The translations under genes and the position numbers were made by a program. A DNA stretch of 64,000 nt from Candidatus Levybacteria bacterium GW2011_GWA1_37_16 (GTDB lineage: Bacteria > Patescibacteriota > Microgenomatia > Levybacterales > UBA12049): NCBI GenBank assembly GCA_943357985.1, contig CALRGR010000003.1:6496-70495 (forward strand). The letters are read 5' to 3'. Shown here one piece after another: positions 11,731 through 56,970 of the stretch. Each line of letters begins with the position of its first letter. Position 1 is the stretch's first letter. The notes beneath the pieces are model-generated. The model ran no database searches. It saw only the letters and a list, made by a program, of their open reading frames with translations, and was not told the DNA's origin.

Positions 11731-12228
11731 ATGGAGCTATTAGAAAAATTTGGATTTGATCCTGTGCTTTTAATTGCTCAGGTAATAAACTTTTTGATAA
11801 TTTTATATGTTTTAAAAAGGTTTTTGTATAAGCCTATTTTAGACATGCTCAAAAAAAGAGAAGAAACTGTTAAAGAAGGCCTTAAGCAAGCGGAAGAAGC
11901 AAGGCTGCTACTTGAAAGCACGCAGGAAAAGGAAAAAGTAATAATTAAAAAGGCCAGACTTGCCGCAGAACAAATGATAAAAGACGCTAAAACACAAGCT
12001 CAAGAAGAAGCAAAGCTTATAGAAGAGACTTCTAAAAAACAGGCAGCAAGACTAATTGAAGACGCACAAAGACAAATAGAATTGTCCGAAAACGAAACAG
12101 AGAAGAAGCTGGCAACATATGTAAGCCGGCTGGCAATAGAACTATTAACTAAATCAAGCAAGGAACTTTTTTCCGAAAAAGAACAGAAAGAGATTTCGCA
12201 AAACGCCATAAAACACATAAAACAATAA
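11731..12228 (+). CDS. atpF: ATP synthase F0 subunit b
   Basis: N-terminal TM helix followed by a long charged coiled coil. Position in the operon supports the call. Confidence 0.7.
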   Translation: MELLEKFGFDPVLLIAQVINFLIILYVLKRFLYKPILDMLKKREETVKEGLKQAEEARLLLESTQEKEKVIIKKARLAAEQMIKDAKTQAQEEAKLIEETSKKQAARLIEDAQRQIELSENETEKKLATYVSRLAIELLTKSSKELFSEKEQKEISQNAIKHIKQ

Positions 12229-12229
12229 T

Positions 12230-12592
12230 ATGATAAAAAAACAAGTTGAAAAATTGGCTTTATTAAGCTATGTAGGAAATAACCTTGATAATAAAAAGGC
12301 TGAGAAAATAACTAGTTCTATGTCAAGAAGTGATCTAAAAATGTACATAGAAGCTTTGAAAAATTGGGAAAGAAAGCAAAGAATAGAAATTCTGATACCG
12401 GATGAAGGATACAAAAAGAATTTGAAACTGAATATGATCAAAAAAATATTTCCCAAAAAAGAAATTAGATACTCTGTTGACTCATCGCTTATTACAGGAA
12501 TTAGAATAGTGAGCCAAGACTTAGTTTATGATTTTAATTTAAAAAATACACTTGAAGACATAGTTGAGCACATTAGAAAACAATATGATTAA
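12230..12592 (+). CDS. atpH: ATP synthase F1 delta (OSCP)-like subunit, unusually short (120 aa)
   Basis: Sits between atpF and atpA. The C-terminal part (ITGIRIVSQDLVYDFNLKNTLEDI) resembles the delta C-terminus. Confidence 0.45.
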   Translation: MIKKQVEKLALLSYVGNNLDNKKAEKITSSMSRSDLKMYIEALKNWERKQRIEILIPDEGYKKNLKLNMIKKIFPKKEIRYSVDSSLITGIRIVSQDLVYDFNLKNTLEDIVEHIRKQYD

Positions 12593-40498: not shown

Positions 40499-41035
40499 AT
40501 GGAAGAGAAATGTCCAAAATGCGGTTCGGCCTTGTCTCCTATTACGGAGACAGCAACAGGCCGCAAGCTTCAAAGGTGCTCTAAGGGCTCTTGGAATCCC
40601 GAAACAAAACAGAATGAAGGCTGTGACTATGTATTATGGATTCAGGCAGAAGATGAAAAGCTAGATGAAAAATGCCCCAAGTGCGGAAATCCACTGGTCA
40701 TGGCGCAAACACGCTTTGGAAAGAAAATGAAAAAGTGTTCAACCAATGTCTGGAATAAAGATACAAAAAAAGCAGAGGGCTGTGACTTTATAGAATGGAT
40801 TAACGGCACAACAAAAGAACTTGATGAAGATTGTCCAGAATGCGGAAAGAAGCTTGTTCTTTATACAACCTCAACAGGAAAAAAGATGAAAAAGTGTTCA
40901 ACCAGTGGCTGGGACAGGGAAAAAAAGGTTACAACGGGCTGCACATATGTCCAATGGCTTAAACCAAGTGAGTATCAATCAAAAGACGAACCAAACGGAG
41001 AAGAGTTTTTACCCCCTGAATCCCAAGCAAACTAG
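40499..41035 (+). CDS. Stand-alone protein built from three tandem topoisomerase-type C4 zinc-ribbon modules
   Basis: Three ~58-aa repeats. Each carries CP(K/E)CG, about 15 intervening residues, then KC and GC (e.g. EKCPKCGNPLVMAQTRFGKKMKKCSTNVWNKDTKKAEGCDFIEW). This resembles the C-terminal zinc ribbons of topoisomerase I and YrdD-type proteins. Confidence 0.55.
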   Translation: MEEKCPKCGSALSPITETATGRKLQRCSKGSWNPETKQNEGCDYVLWIQAEDEKLDEKCPKCGNPLVMAQTRFGKKMKKCSTNVWNKDTKKAEGCDFIEWINGTTKELDEDCPECGKKLVLYTTSTGKKMKKCSTSGWDREKKVTTGCTYVQWLKPSEYQSKDEPNGEEFLPPESQAN

Positions 41036-41730
41036 AAAGGGATGTCTGAAGTTGTTGACTCGATACTTTCAAAGGATTTTCTATAAATGCAAAGCCTGCA
41101 CGTTTCAGACGGTTTTGGCAAATCACCATTTAGAACTTTAGAAATCTCATTAACGAATTTTAAAAATCCATCCATATCTTCCTCTATTGGATGCCATTTA
41201 GGAGATGTAGTAAATACAAATTTTCCGTCTTTATGCTCAATTGCGTCCGGTGAAACGCTAACTAGTCCGATTCTTGAAACTTTAATAGGCTTACCTTCTG
41301 CGGGATTTTCCAAAGCATATTTATAAGCATGCAGTTGACTTGAAAACTTTTTGATTTGCTCTTCATCTGGCTTTGTTATTTTAAAATCTATAACCGAGTA
41401 TGTACCATCTGCAAGTTTAGTTAAAACATCAAAACGTCCACTTATATAACAGTCTTCTGAGCCTTTTATTGGCTGGGATTTTAAAAACCCTTCCTGAATT
41501 TCAATTATTCCCTCTGGCAAATCCGGATGAATATCTTTTAAGCTTTTTCCCATAACAGAATTTTGTAAAAGACTATTCATGTGAGTAAAAATTGCAGGGA
41601 AAGCGCCGGAATGAGGAGGAATACCAAGTTTTACTTTTTGATAGAAACAAAACTTACAATCCTCCCAAAGATACTTGAAGTCGGAAGGGGATAATTTATA
41701 TTGCTTCTGTGCTTGCTCCATGAAAACCAA
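41032..41730 (-). CDS. Cas4/RecB-like PD-(D/E)XK nuclease with flanking Cys pairs
   Basis: Motif II GRFDVL, motif III IDFKITK (D-x-K), and a QLHAYKYAL (Q-x3-Y) motif. Cys pairs lie at the N-terminus (CKFC) and C-terminus (CRLC). No CRISPR array is present. Confidence 0.6.
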   Translation of the reverse strand: MVFMEQAQKQYKLSPSDFKYLWEDCKFCFYQKVKLGIPPHSGAFPAIFTHMNSLLQNSVMGKSLKDIHPDLPEGIIEIQEGFLKSQPIKGSEDCYISGRFDVLTKLADGTYSVIDFKITKPDEEQIKKFSSQLHAYKYALENPAEGKPIKVSRIGLVSVSPDAIEHKDGKFVFTTSPKWHPIEEDMDGFLKFVNEISKVLNGDLPKPSETCRLCIYRKSFESIESTTSDIPF

Positions 41731-49982: not shown

Positions 49983-51175
49983 AACTTCTTAAGGGCTTTT
50001 GCTACTGCTTCATATTCATCCCATGGTTCTTCTCCATTGCCTAAATTCATTGATTTTTCATGACTTTTTCCCGTTAGGATAACCAAATCTCCCTTTCTTG
50101 CTATTCTAATAGCCTCATCAATTGCTTTCTGTCTGTCAGAAATTTTAATAAGAGTTTTGTTCTTGATTCTCTTGTCTTTATTTCTAATTCCCTTTTCTAT
50201 ATCATCCGCAATTTTATCTACGCTTTCTCCGCGGGGATCTTCACTTGTCAAAATAATAACATCTGAAAATCTGTCTGAAGCATCCCCCATAAGAGGTCTT
50301 TTTGTACTGTCTCTTTTTCCTGCGCTTCCAAAAACATGAATAATCCTTCCATTAGTCTCTTTTCTTGCCAATTTCAAGAGTTTCTCAAAAGAGTTAGGAG
50401 TGTGCGCAAAATCAATCATAACTCTAAATGGACCTTCAAAAACTATTTCTTGCCTTCCTTTTGGAAGTTTAAAACTCTCAACTGCTTCTTCGATATTTTC
50501 CTTAGAAATTCCCAGAACAGTACAGACAGAAGCTGCTGCCAATATGTTATAATTATTAAATTGTCCGAAAACATTCTTTTCAAAAGAAAAATCCTTTATT
50601 GAAAAATCAGCATCTTTTGAAATCCCATAAGTCAGAAATCTGGAGGAAGCTTTATCTTTTGAAATTATCTTAAAAGAATCATCATCAATGTTTGTTATGG
50701 ATATTTTTGCTTTTTTTAAAAGTTTAAGCTTTGTTGAAACATAATTTTCATAAGTTTTGTGGTAGTCCAAATGCTCATTTGTAACATTTGTTAAAACTGC
50801 GCCTTCAAAATTTATTCCCCATACTCTATGCTGATCTAAAGCATGAGACGTTACTTCCAAAACTACGTATTTTTTGCGCTTCTCTTTAAGATTTGAAATT
50901 CTTTTAAAAAGTTTTTGAATTGTCCACTCGGATGGAGTTGTTACATGAAGACCTATGTCTTCATAAAGCCCTTCAACAGATGCTCCCACCGTTGAAATCA
51001 TTGAGGAATTTAATCCCGCCTTGGTTAGGATGTGATGAATTAGGTTTACAGTAGTTGTTTTACCGTCTGTACCGGTCACTCCAACAACTATCAAATCTTT
51101 GGAAGGGAAACCGTACCAAATATTAGCAACTATTGCGCTAAGCAAATGATAAATATTTTTAATTTCTTGAAGCAT
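49979..51175 (-). CDS. murE: Mur ligase, MurE-like (UDP-MurNAc-L-Ala-D-Glu--diamino acid ligase), lacking the typical N-terminal domain
   Basis: P-loop VGVTGTDGKTTT, motifs HVTTPS and DYHKTYENYVSTK, at about 400 aa. Confidence 0.6.
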   Translation of the reverse strand: MLQEIKNIYHLLSAIVANIWYGFPSKDLIVVGVTGTDGKTTTVNLIHHILTKAGLNSSMISTVGASVEGLYEDIGLHVTTPSEWTIQKLFKRISNLKEKRKKYVVLEVTSHALDQHRVWGINFEGAVLTNVTNEHLDYHKTYENYVSTKLKLLKKAKISITNIDDDSFKIISKDKASSRFLTYGISKDADFSIKDFSFEKNVFGQFNNYNILAAASVCTVLGISKENIEEAVESFKLPKGRQEIVFEGPFRVMIDFAHTPNSFEKLLKLARKETNGRIIHVFGSAGKRDSTKRPLMGDASDRFSDVIILTSEDPRGESVDKIADDIEKGIRNKDKRIKNKTLIKISDRQKAIDEAIRIARKGDLVILTGKSHEKSMNLGNGEEPWDEYEAVAKALKKL

Positions 51176-52497
51176 TATAAAGTTTCCTCTCTTTTTTTGT
51201 CCCAAAATTGCCCACGCCTGCAAAGTTTTGCTTTATCAGCTGAATTTTTCAAAAGCATCTCGGTAACACGCTCTAAGAATAGTGTATTTTGCGAACTCTT
51301 AATAAGAACTACATCTCCTTCTTGTATATTATCAAGGATAAAGTCCCGTCCTTGCGAAAAAGTTTTAAAGCTTAAGTTTTCAAGTCCATTTTTTTTAAGA
51401 ACAGGAGCCACATACTGTTGCATCATTGGACCAACTAAAATTACAAGATCGCAGGTTTTAAGAATTTTATCAGCAACTGTCTTGTGAATTTTCTCCGAAA
51501 TCATACCAAGCTCCCTCATGTCTCCCAAAATTGCTACCTTGCGTCTTTTTCCTGAAACTTTTTTAAGCAAATCTAAAATATCCAGTATTGGCGGTAAAGT
51601 CGCGTTATTATAAGAAGAGTCAATAATCGTTGTGTTTTTTATACCATAAAACACGGAAAGTCTGCCCGGAGGAAGCTTGAAATTTCGTTCAAGCGAGACA
51701 ATTGCATCATTTATAGAAACTCCAAGATATAAAGCAATTGATATTGCGGACATAAATGAACGGGCATAATGATCAGAAAGAGGTCTATCGAGCTTTAACT
51801 TAAAACTTTCTCCAAGATGATTTACATTAAAGCTGAACTTGTTAAGAGTTACTTCAAGATTATCCGCATAAAAGTCTGCGTTCTCTTTTTCAATCGATAT
51901 TGTTGATTTTCTAGCCATAACCGTGGCTGATTCTTTCTCAATTAATTCATCATCAATATTCACAACAGCAAATCCGTCTCCAGGAAGAGATTTTAGAAGA
52001 AGCATTTCCTGCTCCATAGTCTTTTTTAGAATTTCATCTTCCGTTTTTGCTTTATTTTCAAAATAAACGCTATGCTCAAAAGAAATGTTTGTGAGAGTTG
52101 CTATCTGGGGTTTTACAATTTTTAGTAAATAACTCATGTTTTTAGGCTCATCCGGACCGTCAATTCCCATTTCACAAATATAAACGTCATATTGCTTCCA
52201 GTTTATAAAAATACCTAAAAATGAGGTTAGAATAATACGAATCCAGTCTAAAATTGTGTAATTTCCCGGATTTATATCCAAAATATCCAAAGGGATGCCT
52301 GTTTCGCTGTTTTTGCCCTGACCTTGTTTCACTTTATACTTTGAAGTAAGAGTTGCGGCCACAATTGAAGATAAAGAGCTTTTTCCGCTTGCACCTCCAA
52401 TACCCACAACAATAGGTCTTATTTTTATAAGCTGAACTTTTGCAATCATACGCAGATACCAAAGCACAAAAGAGACAACAAACTTTCTCAAAACCAT
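51175..52497 (-). CDS. murF: Mur ligase family protein, MurF-like by position; atypical P-loop GIGGASGKSS
   Basis: Mur-ligase central domain blocks (ICEMGIDGP, TLTNISFEH) and a position after murE in the dcw order. Confidence 0.45.
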   Translation of the reverse strand: MVLRKFVVSFVLWYLRMIAKVQLIKIRPIVVGIGGASGKSSLSSIVAATLTSKYKVKQGQGKNSETGIPLDILDINPGNYTILDWIRIILTSFLGIFINWKQYDVYICEMGIDGPDEPKNMSYLLKIVKPQIATLTNISFEHSVYFENKAKTEDEILKKTMEQEMLLLKSLPGDGFAVVNIDDELIEKESATVMARKSTISIEKENADFYADNLEVTLNKFSFNVNHLGESFKLKLDRPLSDHYARSFMSAISIALYLGVSINDAIVSLERNFKLPPGRLSVFYGIKNTTIIDSSYNNATLPPILDILDLLKKVSGKRRKVAILGDMRELGMISEKIHKTVADKILKTCDLVILVGPMMQQYVAPVLKKNGLENLSFKTFSQGRDFILDNIQEGDVVLIKSSQNTLFLERVTEMLLKNSADKAKLCRRGQFWDKKREETL

Positions 52498-52574
52498 ACT
52501 CGTATTATACCTGTTTAAGCCTCAAAAAGCCAAAATATTGTCAATAAAGTTTACATGGTGTACTCTTAAGTTAG

Positions 52575-53618
52575 ATGAGCCCGCTTGATGAAAATCAACT
52601 TCAGATTGAGATTAAAAAAGAGGGACTGCGCCATATTACGGATGAAATACCCGGCTTTATGAGGCAAAAACTTGGTATAAACTTCACTTATTATGACGAG
52701 GATCTCAAAAGAATAAAAGATAAAGTCGTAATTAGCCGGATTGAGAGCTTAGCAATTCCGCCAGCCTGGAAAAAAGTCTGGATTTGTGCTTCAGAAAACG
52801 GATATCTTCAAGCAACAGGCACTGATGACAAAAGACGTAAACAGTATATTTATCATCCGGAATGGGTAAAAGCAACTCAAACAAGCAAATTTGAAAGACT
52901 GACGGATTTTGGCCTCAGCCTTCCAATAATCCGCTCGAAAATCGATTATGACCTGCACCAAAAAGACATGGATAAGAAAAGAATCCTAGCTACTGTCGTT
53001 TGGTTGCTTGAGAAAACTTTTATCCGCATTGGAAATGAAGAATACGCAAGAAATAATGAAAGCTTCGGGCTAACAACTTTAAGAAACCGTCACGCAAAAG
53101 TAAGAGGAGACCAAATTTCATTTAAATTCATAGGGAAAAGCGGTATTGAGAATGTAATCGAAATATCAAACCCAACAATTGCCAAAACAATCAGAAAATG
53201 TATTGAACTTCCGGGCTACGAGCTTTTTCAATTTATAGATGATAGCGGAGAGCGTCATGTAATTGATTCTGCGGATGTTAACGAATTTTTGAAAGAAATA
53301 ACTAAAAATGAATTTACTACAAAAGATTTTAGAACTTGGGGAGCAACCAATTTATCAGCAAGACACCTTTATAAATTAGGAGGCGCGGAGAGTGAGAAGA
53401 CGATCAAGCAAAATATTATGGACACCATCAAGGAAGTCGCAAGTCAGCTTAACAATACCGTATCGGTTTGTAGAAATTATTACATTCATCCGCAAGTTTT
53501 GAAGAGCTACGTCAAAAAGACTCTAGTTCCCCACTTTGCAGGTTTTGAAAAATCCAGAAAATCAATAAAAGGACTCTCCTGGAACGAAACCGCCCTAATC
53601 AAACTCCTACAAAATTAG
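52575..53618 (+). CDS. Type IB DNA topoisomerase (bacterial/poxvirus-type TopIB)
   Basis: Conserved blocks GLTTLRNRH, KDFRTWGAT and the catalytic Tyr context SVCRNYYIHP. Confidence 0.8.
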   Translation: MSPLDENQLQIEIKKEGLRHITDEIPGFMRQKLGINFTYYDEDLKRIKDKVVISRIESLAIPPAWKKVWICASENGYLQATGTDDKRRKQYIYHPEWVKATQTSKFERLTDFGLSLPIIRSKIDYDLHQKDMDKKRILATVVWLLEKTFIRIGNEEYARNNESFGLTTLRNRHAKVRGDQISFKFIGKSGIENVIEISNPTIAKTIRKCIELPGYELFQFIDDSGERHVIDSADVNEFLKEITKNEFTTKDFRTWGATNLSARHLYKLGGAESEKTIKQNIMDTIKEVASQLNNTVSVCRNYYIHPQVLKSYVKKTLVPHFAGFEKSRKSIKGLSWNETALIKLLQN

Positions 53619-53642
53619 CAATTAGCTCTAAATTCTGCTATA

Positions 53643-54344
53643 ATGGGAACAATGAGAGATTTTAATAGAGGCGGTAACTCGAGACCAAGACGAAGCTATG
53701 ATAATAGAGGATCTTCTGGTGGAAACGAAGAAAGACAAACATTTAAAGCAATATGCGCAGATTGTGGCCGCGACTGTGACCTTCCATTTGAACCCCGTGG
53801 CAACAGACCAGTATATTGCAGAGATTGTTTCAAAAAGCATACACCGGAAGGCTCAAGCGGAGATAGATATGAATCAAGAGGAGATTCCAGAGGGGGTCCA
53901 CGTGAAGATTCAAGGCGATCAGGTGGCGATAGACCAATGTTTAGCGCAGTATGCGACAACTGCGGCAAAACTTGCCAGCTTCCCTTTGAACCAAGACAGG
54001 GAAAAGAAGTTTTCTGCAGTAGATGTTTTGAAGATAAAGAAAAAGGAATAGACATGACGCAAAGAAAAAGCAATAGCAATGGCACGCAAGCACAATCACA
54101 ACCAAACCTTCAAATGGACGCAATAAATGCAAAGCTTGATAAAATATTAAATCTTTTATCCAACACAAAAGCATTAAAAAATGACGAGAAAGCTTCCAAA
54201 GTAGTAGAAGATGAGATAGAACAACTAGTAAAAACAATTAAAGCTGAAAAATCAATCAAACCTAAAAAGAAAGTCAAAGATCCTGAGCAAAGCCGAAGCG
54301 TAGCAGCAGAAACAGAAATTCCAATAGAATCCCCAACGGAATAG
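53643..54344 (+). CDS. RGG/Arg-Gly-rich protein with two repeated CxxC...CxxC zinc-ribbon modules and a lysine-rich C-terminal coiled coil
   Basis: Duplicated module: CADCGRDCDLPFEPRGNRPVYCRDCF and CDNCGKTCQLPFEPRQGKEVFCSRCF. The region is locally GC-rich because of GGN/CGN codons, which produces many spurious overlapping ORFs on both strands. Confidence 0.5.
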   Translation: MGTMRDFNRGGNSRPRRSYDNRGSSGGNEERQTFKAICADCGRDCDLPFEPRGNRPVYCRDCFKKHTPEGSSGDRYESRGDSRGGPREDSRRSGGDRPMFSAVCDNCGKTCQLPFEPRQGKEVFCSRCFEDKEKGIDMTQRKSNSNGTQAQSQPNLQMDAINAKLDKILNLLSNTKALKNDEKASKVVEDEIEQLVKTIKAEKSIKPKKKVKDPEQSRSVAAETEIPIESPTE

Positions 54345-54475
54345 TTATCCTTTTTTATTCTTTTTTAATTTTCCCTGAAGATCATTAAAAAGTTCTTGAG
54401 AAATTTCCCTGGGCGTTAATTTCTTATCTCTAAGGTTTTTAGGGCTGAGAAGTCTTGAAGGTTTTTTCATCGAGA

Positions 54476-54592
54476 TTTAAAAAGGAATATCGGAAGTAGA
54501 ATTTGGGTCCACCTCAAAGGTTTTTCTGTATATGCAAAGCCTGCAATCTTCATAAAGATAAGCAAAGTCGGAAGGTGATAGCTTGTACATAT
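54476..54592 (-). pseudogene. Internally deleted remnant of a paralogue of the Cas4-like nuclease (N-terminal 15 aa fused to C-terminal 22 aa)
   Basis: Translates to MYKLSPSDFAYLYEDCRLCIYRKTFEVDPNSTSDIPF*. Compare the intact gene at 41032-41730: ...QYKLSPSDFKYLWEDCKFC... and ...ETCRLCIYRKSFESIESTTSDIPF*. The DNA is also similar (tgcaggctttgcat...). Confidence 0.6.
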
Positions 54593-54596
54593 TTAT

Positions 54597-54674
54597 GTAT
54601 TACGCCTTTCGACTAGTCCTGAGCGAAGCCGAATGACAAAATCAGAAGGAGATAATTTATACTGTTGCGCCATA
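54597..54674 (-). pseudogene. Second N-terminal fragment of the same nuclease family (MAQQYKLSPSDFVIRLRSGLVERRNT*)
   Basis: Translated by hand from the minus strand. It shares the QYKLSPSDF block with both the intact gene and the adjacent remnant. Confidence 0.45.
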
Positions 54675-54721
54675 AGAGAATAATTATACCACGAAGGAGG
54701 AATTCTGACTAAGAAGTCAAA

Positions 54722-54907
54722 TTATTTCTTGCTAGAATTTTCCACAACTCCAATCTCTCCTAGCGTGAGGTTGTAGAGTTTATAAACCATTTTATCAAGC
54801 TCTGCCTTTAGATCATCATAAACCTCGGGAAGCTTTTTCATTAACTCTAAAGAATCACCTAGATAGAGAGCGAAGTTTTTATCATCATTGAGGAAATAGG
54901 TCTTCAT
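54722..54907 (-). pseudogene. Probable in-frame deletion remnant of an amino-DNA methyltransferase / RM-associated gene (61 aa)
   Basis: N-terminal NFALYLGDSLELMKKLPE resembles the N-terminus of beta-class N6/N4 MTases that normally precedes the S/DPPY motif. It is immediately followed by LDKMVYKLYNLTLGEIGVVE, which resembles the C-terminal ends of RM enzymes. The catalytic core is absent. Confidence 0.4.
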
Positions 54908-54975
54908 TTGTATTAAAATTATACTTCTTTTCCTTACAATTTACTATTCCACTAATATTGACACCTTTTGATCTA

Positions 54976-55005
54976 TTGACAAGAGTGTGTATTGAGTTAT
55001 ATAAT
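54976..55005 (+). promoter_or_regulatory. Consensus sigma70-type promoter (TTGACA-18-TATAAT)
   Basis: TTGACA at 54976-54981, TATAAT at 55000-55005, with a second TTGACA at 54958-54963. Confidence 0.5.
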
Positions 55006-55011
55006 GCTTTT

Positions 55012-55091
55012 TACCTCTAATACGCAAGTGTTAGGGATAGAAAATCTAGCAATAGATTTTCGGCAAAGGGACCCCGCAAGGGGTTTTTTTG
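55012..55091 (+). ncRNA. Candidate small RNA (~80 nt) of unknown family with two GCAA-tetraloop hairpins
   Basis: Lies downstream of the consensus promoter. Internal 9-bp hairpin GAAAATCTA-GCAA-TAGATTTTC. It ends in an intrinsic terminator. There is no plausible CDS; the listed 78-aa ORF 54992-55228 runs across the terminator. Confidence 0.35.
55069..55091 (+). terminator. Rho-independent terminator (GGACCCC-GCAA-GGGGT followed by T7)
   Basis: GC stem with a GNRA loop and a run of seven T's. It may also serve the convergent ftsI gene weakly from the other strand. Confidence 0.55.
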
Positions 55092-55287
55092 TGCCTACTT
55101 TTCTGTCCTTTCGTTCCGGCGAAAGAACGAAAGCCTCTCTTGCCAGTGAAGCCGGACTATTTTTACTCCGCTCGCTGATCGGGTTATTTCACCCCCTCCA
55201 TCGACAGGTTTGCGAGGAATCCCCCTGATAGCTCGCTACATAAAAAAATTAACGTCCTAATGCTTCAAGGCAAGAATAAGAAGAATA

Positions 55288-56970
55288 TTATTCCGTGGGG
55301 GGAATTCCGTAATACGTCAATATGTCTTTGGCGATGGAGAAAAAGACCGGGGCGGCAGTGTCTGCACCGTATATGCTAGTCGTGGGCCTATCAATAATTA
55401 CAAGCATGACGAACTTTGGATTGTCCGCGGGAGCAAAACCAATAAAAGAAGCGATTGTTTGGTTTGGGTCATAATGTCCCGCAACCGGAATTGACGCTGT
55501 TCCTGTTTTACCTGCAATTCTATAACCTTTTAGCCTTGCCCACTGCGCCTCTCCCTTATTTACGGCATTTACCATAATCTCCGTCATTATTTTTGAAGTT
55601 TTTTCCGAAATTGTTCTTGTGACTACTTTTGACGGAATTTTTACTTTGTCCCCTTCTGCTGTATGAATTTGCGCCACAATGTGCGGTTCCATCCTAAGCC
55701 CTCCATTTGCAATTGAACCTATAGCGGCAAGAAGCTGTATGGGAGTAATTGAGATTCCCTGACCAAAACTTACCGTTGCCAAATCTACTTCATACCAATT
55801 ATCTTTTTCCTTAATTGGCTGTGCCACTTCTCCCTGCAAATCAATCCCCGTTGTTTGCCCTATGCCAAATTTTTCTAAATGCGATAGCATGCGATTTAGT
55901 CCGAGTTTCTTCCCAACAAAAACCATTCCTGTATTATCCGAATGAATTATTGTATCAATCATACTAATATTGGGCTTATACTTATCATTCCAGGTTTTGA
56001 TGGTATATCCGCCTATTGAAACAGGTTTATCACAGATATTACATTTAGTCTCTGGCGTTACCAAACCTTCATCCAAGGCAGCTGACATAATAAGAGGCTT
56101 AAAAGTAGAACCCGGTTCATAAGCATCATTAATGAATGGATTTCTATACTCTTTTTCGGAATAGTCCTGGAACTTTTGCGGATCAAAAGATGGAGTTGCT
56201 ACCATTGCAAGAATTTGCCCTGTTGCTGGATCCATAACTGCAACCATTCCCCCGCTTGCGCCGTAAGTATCAATTGCTTTTTTCAACTTGTTCTCTGCCG
56301 CATACTGAATAGCTCTGTCTATTGATAAGACAAGACTATCTCCATCAATTGTTTTTTCATCCCCGCTATTTAGTTTTGCAACTATTGGTCTTCCTAATGC
56401 ATCCTGAATAACGCTTGCAAGCCCTTCCTTGCCTCTCAAAAGCCTGTCGTAATGCCCTTCAAGCCCAAAATAACCAGTATCTACATCCGCATCATTCTTA
56501 CCCACAAAACCCAAAAGATGGGCCGCAGTTGATGCTTCCGAATAAAGCCTTGTGTAGTTTTCTTCAAACCCAATACCGGGGAGTTTTAATTGCTCAATTT
56601 GCTGTTTTGTTGCAAGGCCTACCTTTGGTGGAAGTGCCACCCAAAATTTATCCAGATTTAAAAGCGCGGATACAGAAGCCTCCTCAGTTTTTAGAATCGG
56701 AGCCAAAACCAAAGCTGTTAATTTTTTATCCTTAACCACTTTTGGGTTTGCAAAAACAGTATAGATAAGTCTATTGGCAACTATAGGAAATCCGTCTGAT
56801 GTATAGATTTGGCCACGCGCCGGCTGAAGTTTTATTATTCTTCCGTATTGATTTTCCCCAAGAAGAGAAAGCTCCGATGCTTTAACAACCTGCCAGTAAA
56901 AAAGACGGGAAATAACGACAAAGAAAAGAAAAATTAGAAAACAAAAGGTAAACCTGTAACGCCAGGTCAT
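55288..56970 (-). CDS. ftsI: Penicillin-binding protein 2 / FtsI (class B transpeptidase)
   Basis: N-terminal TM helix, a PBP dimerisation domain, and the SxxK (STFK), SxN (SDN) and KTG (KTGT) motifs. Confidence 0.9.
   Translation of the reverse strand: MTWRYRFTFCFLIFLFFVVISRLFYWQVVKASELSLLGENQYGRIIKLQPARGQIYTSDGFPIVANRLIYTVFANPKVVKDKKLTALVLAPILKTEEASVSALLNLDKFWVALPPKVGLATKQQIEQLKLPGIGFEENYTRLYSEASTAAHLLGFVGKNDADVDTGYFGLEGHYDRLLRGKEGLASVIQDALGRPIVAKLNSGDEKTIDGDSLVLSIDRAIQYAAENKLKKAIDTYGASGGMVAVMDPATGQILAMVATPSFDPQKFQDYSEKEYRNPFINDAYEPGSTFKPLIMSAALDEGLVTPETKCNICDKPVSIGGYTIKTWNDKYKPNISMIDTIIHSDNTGMVFVGKKLGLNRMLSHLEKFGIGQTTGIDLQGEVAQPIKEKDNWYEVDLATVSFGQGISITPIQLLAAIGSIANGGLRMEPHIVAQIHTAEGDKVKIPSKVVTRTISEKTSKIMTEIMVNAVNKGEAQWARLKGYRIAGKTGTASIPVAGHYDPNQTIASFIGFAPADNPKFVMLVIIDRPTTSIYGADTAAPVFFSIAKDILTYYGIPPTE

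Follow-up and report, generated by a model that had tools for sequence, protein, structure and literature searches.

The closest described counterparts of the DNA analyzed here are chromosomal variable regions and defence-island-like hot spots, in which conserved flanks enclose species-specific cargo. A 2.8-kb interval of this kind lies between ftsI and a murF-like gene in a 64,000-nt stretch (hereafter the window) of Candidatus Levybacteria bacterium GW2011_GWA1_37_16 (GCA_943357985.1, contig CALRGR010000003.1, positions 6,496 to 70,495). Its flanks are conserved, related species carry their own cargo in the corresponding gap (type II and type IIG restriction-modification (R-M) systems, Fic/Doc genes), and the window itself holds pseudogene scars. 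The interval differs from such hot spots in that it sits in the tight division and cell wall (dcw) cluster without an integrase or tRNA, and in that it also holds conserved non-defence genes, namely a type IB topoisomerase (TopIB), a protein with CxxC-x17-CxxC domains (the CxxC protein), a 41-codon open reading frame (ORF) termed p41, and a small RNA (sRNA). According to the comparisons presented below, the interval is probably the most reduced form of an old, vertically inherited murF-ftsI variable region in a small Levybacteria clade, and not a recent mobile insertion.

The individual components also have described counterparts. The poxvirus-like TopIB of Deinococcus radiodurans (PDB 2F4Q/3M4A) is matched by the window enzyme in length (346 and 347 aa, respectively), in its two Pfam domains and in the catalytic pentad, and the sole oddity of the window gene is its place inside the dcw cluster beside a variable region. 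Cas4/RecB-like PD-(D/E)XK nucleases with terminal Cys clusters (PDDEXK_1, PF12705) are represented by an intact paralogue elsewhere in the window, in a gene group here called island 1, while the copy in the gap retains 16 + 21 terminal codons and zero catalytic residues; there is no CRISPR-Cas context, and "Cas4-like" refers to the fold only. Like trans-encoded sRNAs with a sigma-70 promoter and a Rho-independent terminator, the window sRNA has its own promoter, a length of ~80 nt and a terminal hairpin with a U-tract, and it is kept across species with compensatory changes. Unlike them, it belongs to no Rfam family, carries GNRA loops on all hairpins and is confined to a narrow set of Levybacteria-like contigs. 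Small archaeal CxxC-x17-CxxC proteins of Methanosarcina mazei, which belong to the TIGR04272 / PF23477 family, are zinc binders (PMC12704099), and the same spacing is found in both copies of the domain in the window protein, which differs from the M. mazei proteins in its doubled domain, RG/RGG segments, Lys/Glu-rich tail and length of 233 aa.

Position and content of the interval

The interval (52498-55287) coincides exactly with the intergenic gap between the murF-like gene and ftsI. Upstream of the gap, the dcw order on the minus strand is mraZ (58634-58200), rsmH, ftsL and ftsI (56970-55288), and after the gap the same strand continues with the murF-like gene (52497-51175), murE, murC, murA, a GlmU-like gene, a 155-aa ORF and glmS (45522-43759). 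Island 1 follows glmS and comprises a 149-aa ORF, a DUF2130 gene (42880-41750), a PD-(D/E)XK nuclease and a 3x Zn_ribbon_Top1-like protein; beyond it lie mraY (40335-39328), ftsW, murG, ftsA and ftsZ. The genome has a GC content of ~37%, and the nearest named relatives of the window TopIB, ftsI and mraY proteins belong to Candidatus Levybacteria/Levyibacteriota (candidate phyla radiation (CPR), Microgenomates). The features of the interval, together with the gene pair of island 1 with which they are compared, are as follows (loci of other genomes are cited by number, e.g. L009).

52504..52533, minus strand: sigma-70-like promoter TTGGCT-18-TATAAT, 10/12 consensus match, ending 6 nt before the murF-like ATG
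52575..53618, plus strand: intact TopIB, 347 aa, divergent from the murF-like gene (Pfam and PDB match)
53643..54344, plus strand: RG/RGG-rich CxxC protein, 233 aa, two CxxC-x17-CxxC domains (zf_Tbcl_2 and TIGR04272 profiles)
54345..54470, minus strand: p41, basic 41-codon ORF, convergent with and abutting the CxxC gene (tblastn conservation)
54477..54590, minus strand: 37-codon in-frame nuclease scar (PD-(D/E)XK, Cas4-like), first 16 codons fused to last 21
54593..54673, minus strand: second nuclease fragment, first 12 codons MAQQYKLSPSDF (54673-54638), then an unrelated tail
54722..54907, minus strand: 61-codon scar ORF, apparent methyltransferase/type IIG fusion (BLASTP to L009 and L069)
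54976..55005, plus strand: sigma-70 promoter of the sRNA, TTGACA-18-TATAAT, the sole 12/12 match in the region
55012..55091, plus strand: sRNA of ~80 nt with three hairpins (folding and covariance model)
55063-55092, plus strand: intrinsic terminator of the sRNA, third hairpin and U-tract
55092..55287, no strand assigned: lineage-specific spacer of ~195 nt, 46% GC, from the sRNA terminator to the ftsI stop
40499..41730, in island 1: 3x Zn_ribbon_Top1-like gene (40499-41035, plus strand) and intact PD-(D/E)XK nuclease gene (41730-41032, minus strand), convergent with a 4-nt overlap

Most of this inventory had been proposed in a first-pass annotation of the sequence, which described an interruption of the dcw cluster between the murF-like gene and ftsI with an intact TopIB on the plus strand, remnants of a Cas4-like nuclease paralogue and of a DNA-methyltransferase-like gene, and an sRNA with a consensus promoter. 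All of these elements are borne out by the comparisons below. Its duplicated-zinc-ribbon RGG protein does have two zinc domains and RGG linkers, but belongs to a different family from the zinc ribbon of island 1. The whole island was 100% identical across three independent Logan assemblies from different runs, and a fourth sample (ENA assembly) had the same gene order. Because the independent assemblies are identical, the remnants are not an assembly artefact, and assembly error as their source was ruled out.

Ancestry of the split and conserved synteny

A GTDB-wide FtsI scan yielded 79 loci, in 71 of which the ftsI junction was visible. Since ftsI was followed by murF or murE within 150 nt in 51 of these 71 species loci, the split of the dcw cluster seen in the window is derived. 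Independent gaps of 1.5-6 kb with unrelated cargo occur at the same place in eight other species, and the ftsI-mur junction is a recurrent breakpoint in Levybacteria.

The split is common to all six nearest relatives, with TopIB adjoining murF wherever the murF side was recovered and only the interior cargo varying. TopIB stands divergently beside murF in L004, L005, L008, L095/L096 and L097, and the window is collinear with L004 and L005 over 52001-53614, a segment that starts within murF, crosses the intergenic region and runs up to the TopIB end. The divergence of TopIB parallels that of ftsI, murF and mraY, with protein identities to the nearest relatives of 78-86% for TopIB, 74-82% for ftsI and 83-87% for mraY; in one direct comparison TopIB stood at 78% and ftsI at 77-82%. 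Furthermore, the same gap holds both the CxxC gene and the sRNA in L004, L005 and L069, the CxxC gene and p41 in L004, L005 and L009, and the CxxC gene in L096. Presence/absence polymorphism of the whole block was not seen among the six nearest relatives. No mobility genes (integrase, transposase) turned up when every ORF in 52498-55287 was scanned against Pfam and NCBIfam, no att-like or flanking direct repeats were found at 52498 or 55287, and no tRNA lies at the interval, the nearest being 17.6 and 24.4 kb away. No compositional anomaly was apparent, interval GC being 0.34-0.40 compared to a window range of 0.30-0.43.

An older state of the neighborhood was found in a distant locus, L091 (1-11454; FtsI 46%), where s229, the sRNA, DUF2130, a 155-aa ORF, a rhodanese gene and the CxxC gene are grouped upstream of purF-mraZ. 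Judging from L091, the gene neighborhood predates its placement inside the dcw cluster.

Two further observations concern the ftsI side of the junction. In L004 (15666-15689) and L005 (13421-13450), the 229-aa gene next to the sRNA is followed, just past its stop codon, by a 24-30-nt copy of the ftsI 3' end; this copy encodes ...YGIPPTE and a stop, and is closer to the window ftsI than to the ftsI of its own genome. This suggests that the 136-aa/229-aa genes entered at the extreme end of ftsI, and that the direct adjacency of sRNA and ftsI, as in the window, is older. Independent 4-6-kb insertions were observed between ftsI and murE in L024, L026, L030, L057 and L081, and the cargo of the independent gaps included a LAGLIDADG/HNH-repeat protein, Bro-N, a ResIII/SNF2 helicase with HTH repeats, HATPase_c_3 proteins and an rve transposase.

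Variable interior and gene remnants

Between the conserved ends, gap content differs in every species, and the window gap is the shortest and most reduced. The gene orders recovered from relatives are listed here.

L004 and L005: TopIB, ZnR3, nuclease, rhodanese, 155 aa, CxxC, p40, (in L004 DUF2130 and two phosphoribosyltransferases (PRTases)), sRNA, 136 aa, 229 aa, ftsI
L069: TopIB, nuclease, CxxC, ArsR, zincin, GGCT, Dam-like methyltransferase, 456 aa, type IIG R-M, sRNA, 131 aa, ftsI
L009: CxxC, p41, YbjQ-like, 174 aa, N6_N4_Mtase, 309 aa, ftsI
L008: TopIB, 229-aa membrane protein, TspO, Fic, ftsI
L095 and L096: TopIB, LGFP protein, TspO, rhodanese, CxxC

The scars in the window lie between p41 and the sRNA, exactly where relatives hold R-M or other cargo. 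Read from 54590 to 54477, the first nuclease scar gives MYKLSPSDFAYLYEDC joined to RLCIYRKTFEVDPNSTSDIPF and a stop codon, which are the N-terminal and C-terminal ends of the nucleases of island 1 and of sister loci (L069, L005). It aligns to columns 1-26 and 215-235 only of the family alignment, the GRFD...IDFK catalytic core having been deleted. The junction falls inside the motif D/T-C-x-x-C-Y/I-Y-Q/R-K, which is present at both ends of the intact nuclease gene, and an internal deletion between these short, similar CxxC-x-Y-x-K-coding motifs would explain both the loss of the core and the kept frame. The scar shows 92.6% nucleotide identity to the L069 nuclease at its 5' end, has the 'DFAYL' and 'FEVD' motifs in common with it, and is at least as near the L069 orthologue as the island-1 copy. 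The second nuclease fragment reached 85% identity in the island-to-island DNA alignment and is preceded by a promoter-like site at 54711-54683.

The 61-codon scar ORF has a different origin. Over residues 1-33 it shares 67% identity with the N-terminus of the intact 274-aa N6_N4_Mtase in L009 (BLASTP E 1e-13), with 84.6% nucleotide identity to that gene over 65 nt, and on this sequence match the N-terminal ~30 codons are assigned to a putative beta-class N4/N6 DNA methyltransferase. The alignment to L009 stops just before DPPY, and the scar ORF itself has no DPPY motif and no Pfam match, PF01555 included. Residues 23-58 resemble the final 36 residues (845-880) of the 880-aa Eco57I/TaqI_C type IIG enzyme of L069 (39%, E 2e-5), and this enzyme occupies the corresponding position beside the sRNA.

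A 17-nt direct repeat, TCCTGAGC(A/G)AAGCCGAA, was also noted in this part of the interval, at 54281-54297 and 54617-54633 (16/17 identical, 336 nt apart, 0.07 chance matches expected). Between its two copies lie the 3' end of the CxxC gene, p41 and the nuclease mini-ORF, and the homology of the second nuclease fragment ends at 54638, within a few bases of the second copy (54633). The repeat may mark a junction formed by recombination.

Proposed history and alternative explanations

The history which we favor would begin with one ancient rearrangement that put a chromosomal gene neighborhood, comprising TopIB, the Zn-ribbon/PD-(D/E)XK nuclease pair, rhodanese, the CxxC RGG protein, the 41-aa gene, DUF2130 and the sRNA, into the normally tight ftsI-murF junction. 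Descent since then would have been vertical, with TopIB fixed beside murF and the sRNA towards ftsI, and the interior would have gained and lost cargo such as R-M systems, Fic/TspO genes and PRTases. In the window lineage, the intact Zn-ribbon/nuclease/DUF2130 set stands at a second site (island 1, between glmS and mraY), and the nuclease copy in the gap would have collapsed. A resident R-M locus would have been cut by deletion to the 61-codon fusion ORF, and the downstream mur genes would have gained their own promoter-like site.

Several points weigh against this history. The order of events may have been either translocation with a leftover or duplication followed by decay. Relative to the CxxC gene, the nuclease scars are on the opposite side from the intact nuclease of L004, L005 and L069, and further rearrangements must therefore be assumed. 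The type IIG homology of the C-terminal half of the scar ORF is weak and comes from a pairwise comparison only. The sRNA alignment was fitted to its model, and hairpin 2 served as a search pattern, so that the pairing statistics given below are inflated. TopIB, p41, the sRNA and the putative murF promoter are predicted from sequence, and the comparison draws on only about 7 close relatives, several of them on short contigs.

One alternative, which we consider unlikely, is that only the Zn_ribbon_Top1/PD-(D/E)XK pair is mobile or often relocated, that it moved from the TopIB site to the mraY site leaving scars behind, and that the rest is ordinary chromosome. The nuclease of the pair in island 1 matches PDDEXK_1 (4.5e-9) and carries a Cys pair at each end (CxxC ... 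CxxC). The two genes are kept together as a convergent unit with a 4-nt overlap and are found at alternative sites: TopIB is their neighbor in L004 and L005, mraY is their neighbor in the window, L092 and L094, and in L007 they lie ~5 kb from TopIB. In L093, a relative of L004/L005, glmS and mraY are only 39 nt apart and the island-1 site is empty, and the scars show that the gap once held a copy. However, no terminal repeats were found at either copy, in L069 and L099 the nuclease is not accompanied by the zinc-ribbon gene, the positions of the scars differ from the site of the intact copy in sister loci, and ordinary rearrangement or duplication can explain the same pattern.

The first-pass annotation had put forward a recurring module, a zinc-ribbon gene convergent with a Cas4-like nuclease gene plus cargo, that had been inserted twice in the dcw operon (here and between mraY and glmS) or duplicated and partly deleted. 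In favor of this view, the interruption is a derived state at each of the two junctions, which are otherwise contiguous, both sites contain nuclease-derived sequence, and among relatives the Zn_ribbon_Top1/nuclease pair is found at two alternative sites. Yet the islands have no common boundaries, and their DNA-level alignment, a comparison named beforehand as part of what could refute this view, returned only three nuclease-derived fragments of 26-46 nt. One of these (32 nt, 91%) matches the scar to the island-1 nuclease at its 3' end, and the other two measure 46 nt (76%) and 26 nt (85%). The arrangement said to be the same at both sites is not, as the zinc proteins are unrelated: that of island 1 is 3x Zn_ribbon_Top1-like and that of the gap is 2x CxxC-x17-CxxC, and homology between them was rejected (BLASTP E = 1.2, different Pfam families). 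Nor is the convergent partner of the gap zinc gene the nuclease remnant, as had been supposed; this partner is the conserved p41 (54470-54345). Recombinase or transposase genes, att repeats and tRNA are absent from the interval, its GC is normal, and sister genomes keep TopIB, the CxxC gene, p41 and the sRNA in synteny within this gap, the clade having inherited them vertically, which speaks against a recent insertion. A twice-inserted module is thus highly improbable, and the idea of duplication and partial deletion survives for the nuclease gene alone and not for the rest of the module.

Hardly any credence can be given to the notion that the nuclease fusion of 37 aa and the methylase fusion of 61 aa have been kept as expressed micro-proteins that took on new functions: both ORFs keep a start codon, frame and natural stop, have promoter-like sites upstream and are identical in sequence in four samples, but these samples represent the same strain-level sequence, so that their identity is uninformative on selection, the 61-aa ORF has no homologue but itself among 5.8 billion proteins, the same fusions occur in no relative, all catalytic motifs are gone, and recombination between in-frame repeated motifs yields an in-frame product automatically.

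Type IB topoisomerase, CxxC protein and p41

The TopIB protein matched Topoisom_I (PF01028; 2e-37, 129.1 bits) and Top1B_N_bact (PF21338; 1e-21, 76.6 bits), both well over their cut-offs, and aligned end to end with D. radiodurans TopIB (PDB 2F4Q; E 1.4e-58). In this alignment the catalytic pentad is kept: R151, K188, the arginine in KDFRTWG, the asparagine in NNT and the tyrosine in RNYY stand opposite R137, K174, R239, N280 and Y289 of the D. radiodurans enzyme (numbering after Krogh & Shuman 2002). Given the intact pentad, the enzyme would relax supercoils via a 3'-phosphotyrosyl intermediate. Homologues at about 60% identity number in the thousands in Levybacteria, Daviesbacteria and other Microgenomates. 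In distant relatives TopIB lies amid housekeeping genes, in the orders LTD-TopIB-PurF (L098) and rpoBC-TopIB (L099) or upstream of GlyRS/mraZ (L006). A literature search for TopIB in Patescibacteria gave nothing.

The CxxC gene starts 24 nt past the end of TopIB, and orthologues are present in the same gap in L004, L005, L009, L069 and L096. The protein matched zf_Tbcl_2 (PF23477; ~3e-31) and TIGR04272 (~3e-31) in two stretches, with 106.8 bits compared to a cut-off of 36, and the exact spacings of the two domains are CADC-17-CRDC and CDNC-17-CSRC. The domains are set in RG/RGG-rich disordered linkers and are followed by a long Lys/Glu-rich C-terminal tail, and this zinc-binding RGG protein probably binds nucleic acid. 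The L005 orthologue (11747-12397) has a single CxxC domain onto which both window domains map, which points to an internal tandem duplication of the domain in the window lineage.

The neighboring p41 had been overlooked in the first-pass annotation. It matched in tblastn to L004 (two copies, 60% and 50%), L005 (52%) and L009 (40%), always beside the CxxC gene, and had no match in Pfam or NCBIfam. Because of this conservation beside the CxxC gene in L004, L005 and L009, p41 is probably a real small gene.

Small RNA

The sRNA folds with a minimum free energy of -35.5 kcal/mol (z = -7.2), and all three hairpins are GNRA-capped (GCAA in each), with loop variants in homologues that are still GNRA (GAAA, GUAA). 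A covariance model (R1) was built from three sequences and identified one copy each in L004, L005 and L069 and, after a pattern scan of metagenomes, also in L087, L088, L090 and L091, with scores of 90-108 bits. The -35 and -10 hexamers of the promoter lie at a constant distance in 8/8 loci. Over the 7 distinct sequences 98.8% of cells were paired, compared to 32-55% in register-shifted controls. Four pairs, three of which belong to hairpin 1, are changed on both sides, and none of 500 shuffles reached the observed covariation score. The model found no further copies outside the narrow clade when searched over ~90-95 other Levybacteria loci. Rfam, searched at the gathering threshold over the window and with E up to 10 over 54300-55350, returned no family for the sRNA or the spacer; no hit in 54300-55350 had an E better than 1.5, and all hits scored far under the gathering thresholds.

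The neighbors of the sRNA vary by locus and include ftsI, s229, RecO and DUF2130, and because they differ between loci the sRNA is regarded as an autonomous gene. Its promoter, terminator and compensatory changes make it a candidate for an independently transcribed sRNA family new to Rfam. The only obvious interaction surface would be a purine-rich single-stranded linker resembling a Shine-Dalgarno sequence (GGCAAAGGGA / CAGGAAG). A bolder proposal is that the sRNA, the RGG/CxxC protein and p41 form a clade-specific ribonucleoprotein or regulatory module in the dcw cluster acting on ftsI/mur expression or, more boldly still, that TopIB, with its tyrosine-recombinase-like active site, drives the turnover of adjacent genes; we consider this very unlikely.

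Just 5' of the sRNA promoter lies a ~38-nt block, AAATTATACTTCTTTTYCTTACAATTTACTATTCCACT (window 54916-54953, L004 15479-15516, L005 12755-12792), which is nearly invariant (a single Y position) in three species whose TopIB DNA is only ~72% identical. Its conservation does not extend to L069, and it may act as a binding site for a regulator or as a divergent promoter facing p41.

On the other side of the sRNA, the spacer (55092-55290) contained no ORF in six frames and had no blastn or tblastx match in the fetched loci or the window. It folds better than shuffled sequences (z = -3.2 on the minus strand, -2.65 on the plus strand), and may be a lineage-specific structured 3' untranslated region or a further scar. 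A hammerhead-like motif noticed by eye at 54600-54640 was rejected, as the core did not fit and there was no Rfam match.

Promoters and neighboring genes

The sigma-70-like site at 52504-52533 would supply the downstream half of the split dcw cluster with its own, near-leaderless start. Boxes resembling -10 elements end ~6-7 nt before the ATGs of the CxxC gene (second ATG, 53652; region 53615-53652) and of murF (52504-52497), which suggests leaderless or near-leaderless mRNAs for both genes. The murF-like ligase (51175-52497) scored 178.9 bits against TIGR01143, whose cut-off is 288.6, and has only the Mur_ligase_M and C domains; in many Levybacteria ftsI leads directly to murE and the murF-like ligase is skipped.

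At the island-1 site of L092 (1-6400), the closest mraY relative, DpnI-like, LexA, DUF2188, Multi_ubiq, ThiF (E1-like) and BubE genes precede the nuclease and ZnR3. This cluster is a ubiquitin-like (Bub/Bil-type) defence cluster.

Implications

The region reveals neither a new mobile element nor a new kind of system. To our knowledge, almost no regulatory RNAs and micro-proteins have been described in the phylum, and the region yields a covariation-supported sRNA family outside Rfam together with a conserved 41-codon gene. It also provides a worked example of how R-M and nuclease genes decay to short in-frame ORFs that gene callers label 'hypothetical proteins'. Among reduced CPR genomes, splitting is tolerated even by a cluster as highly conserved as dcw.

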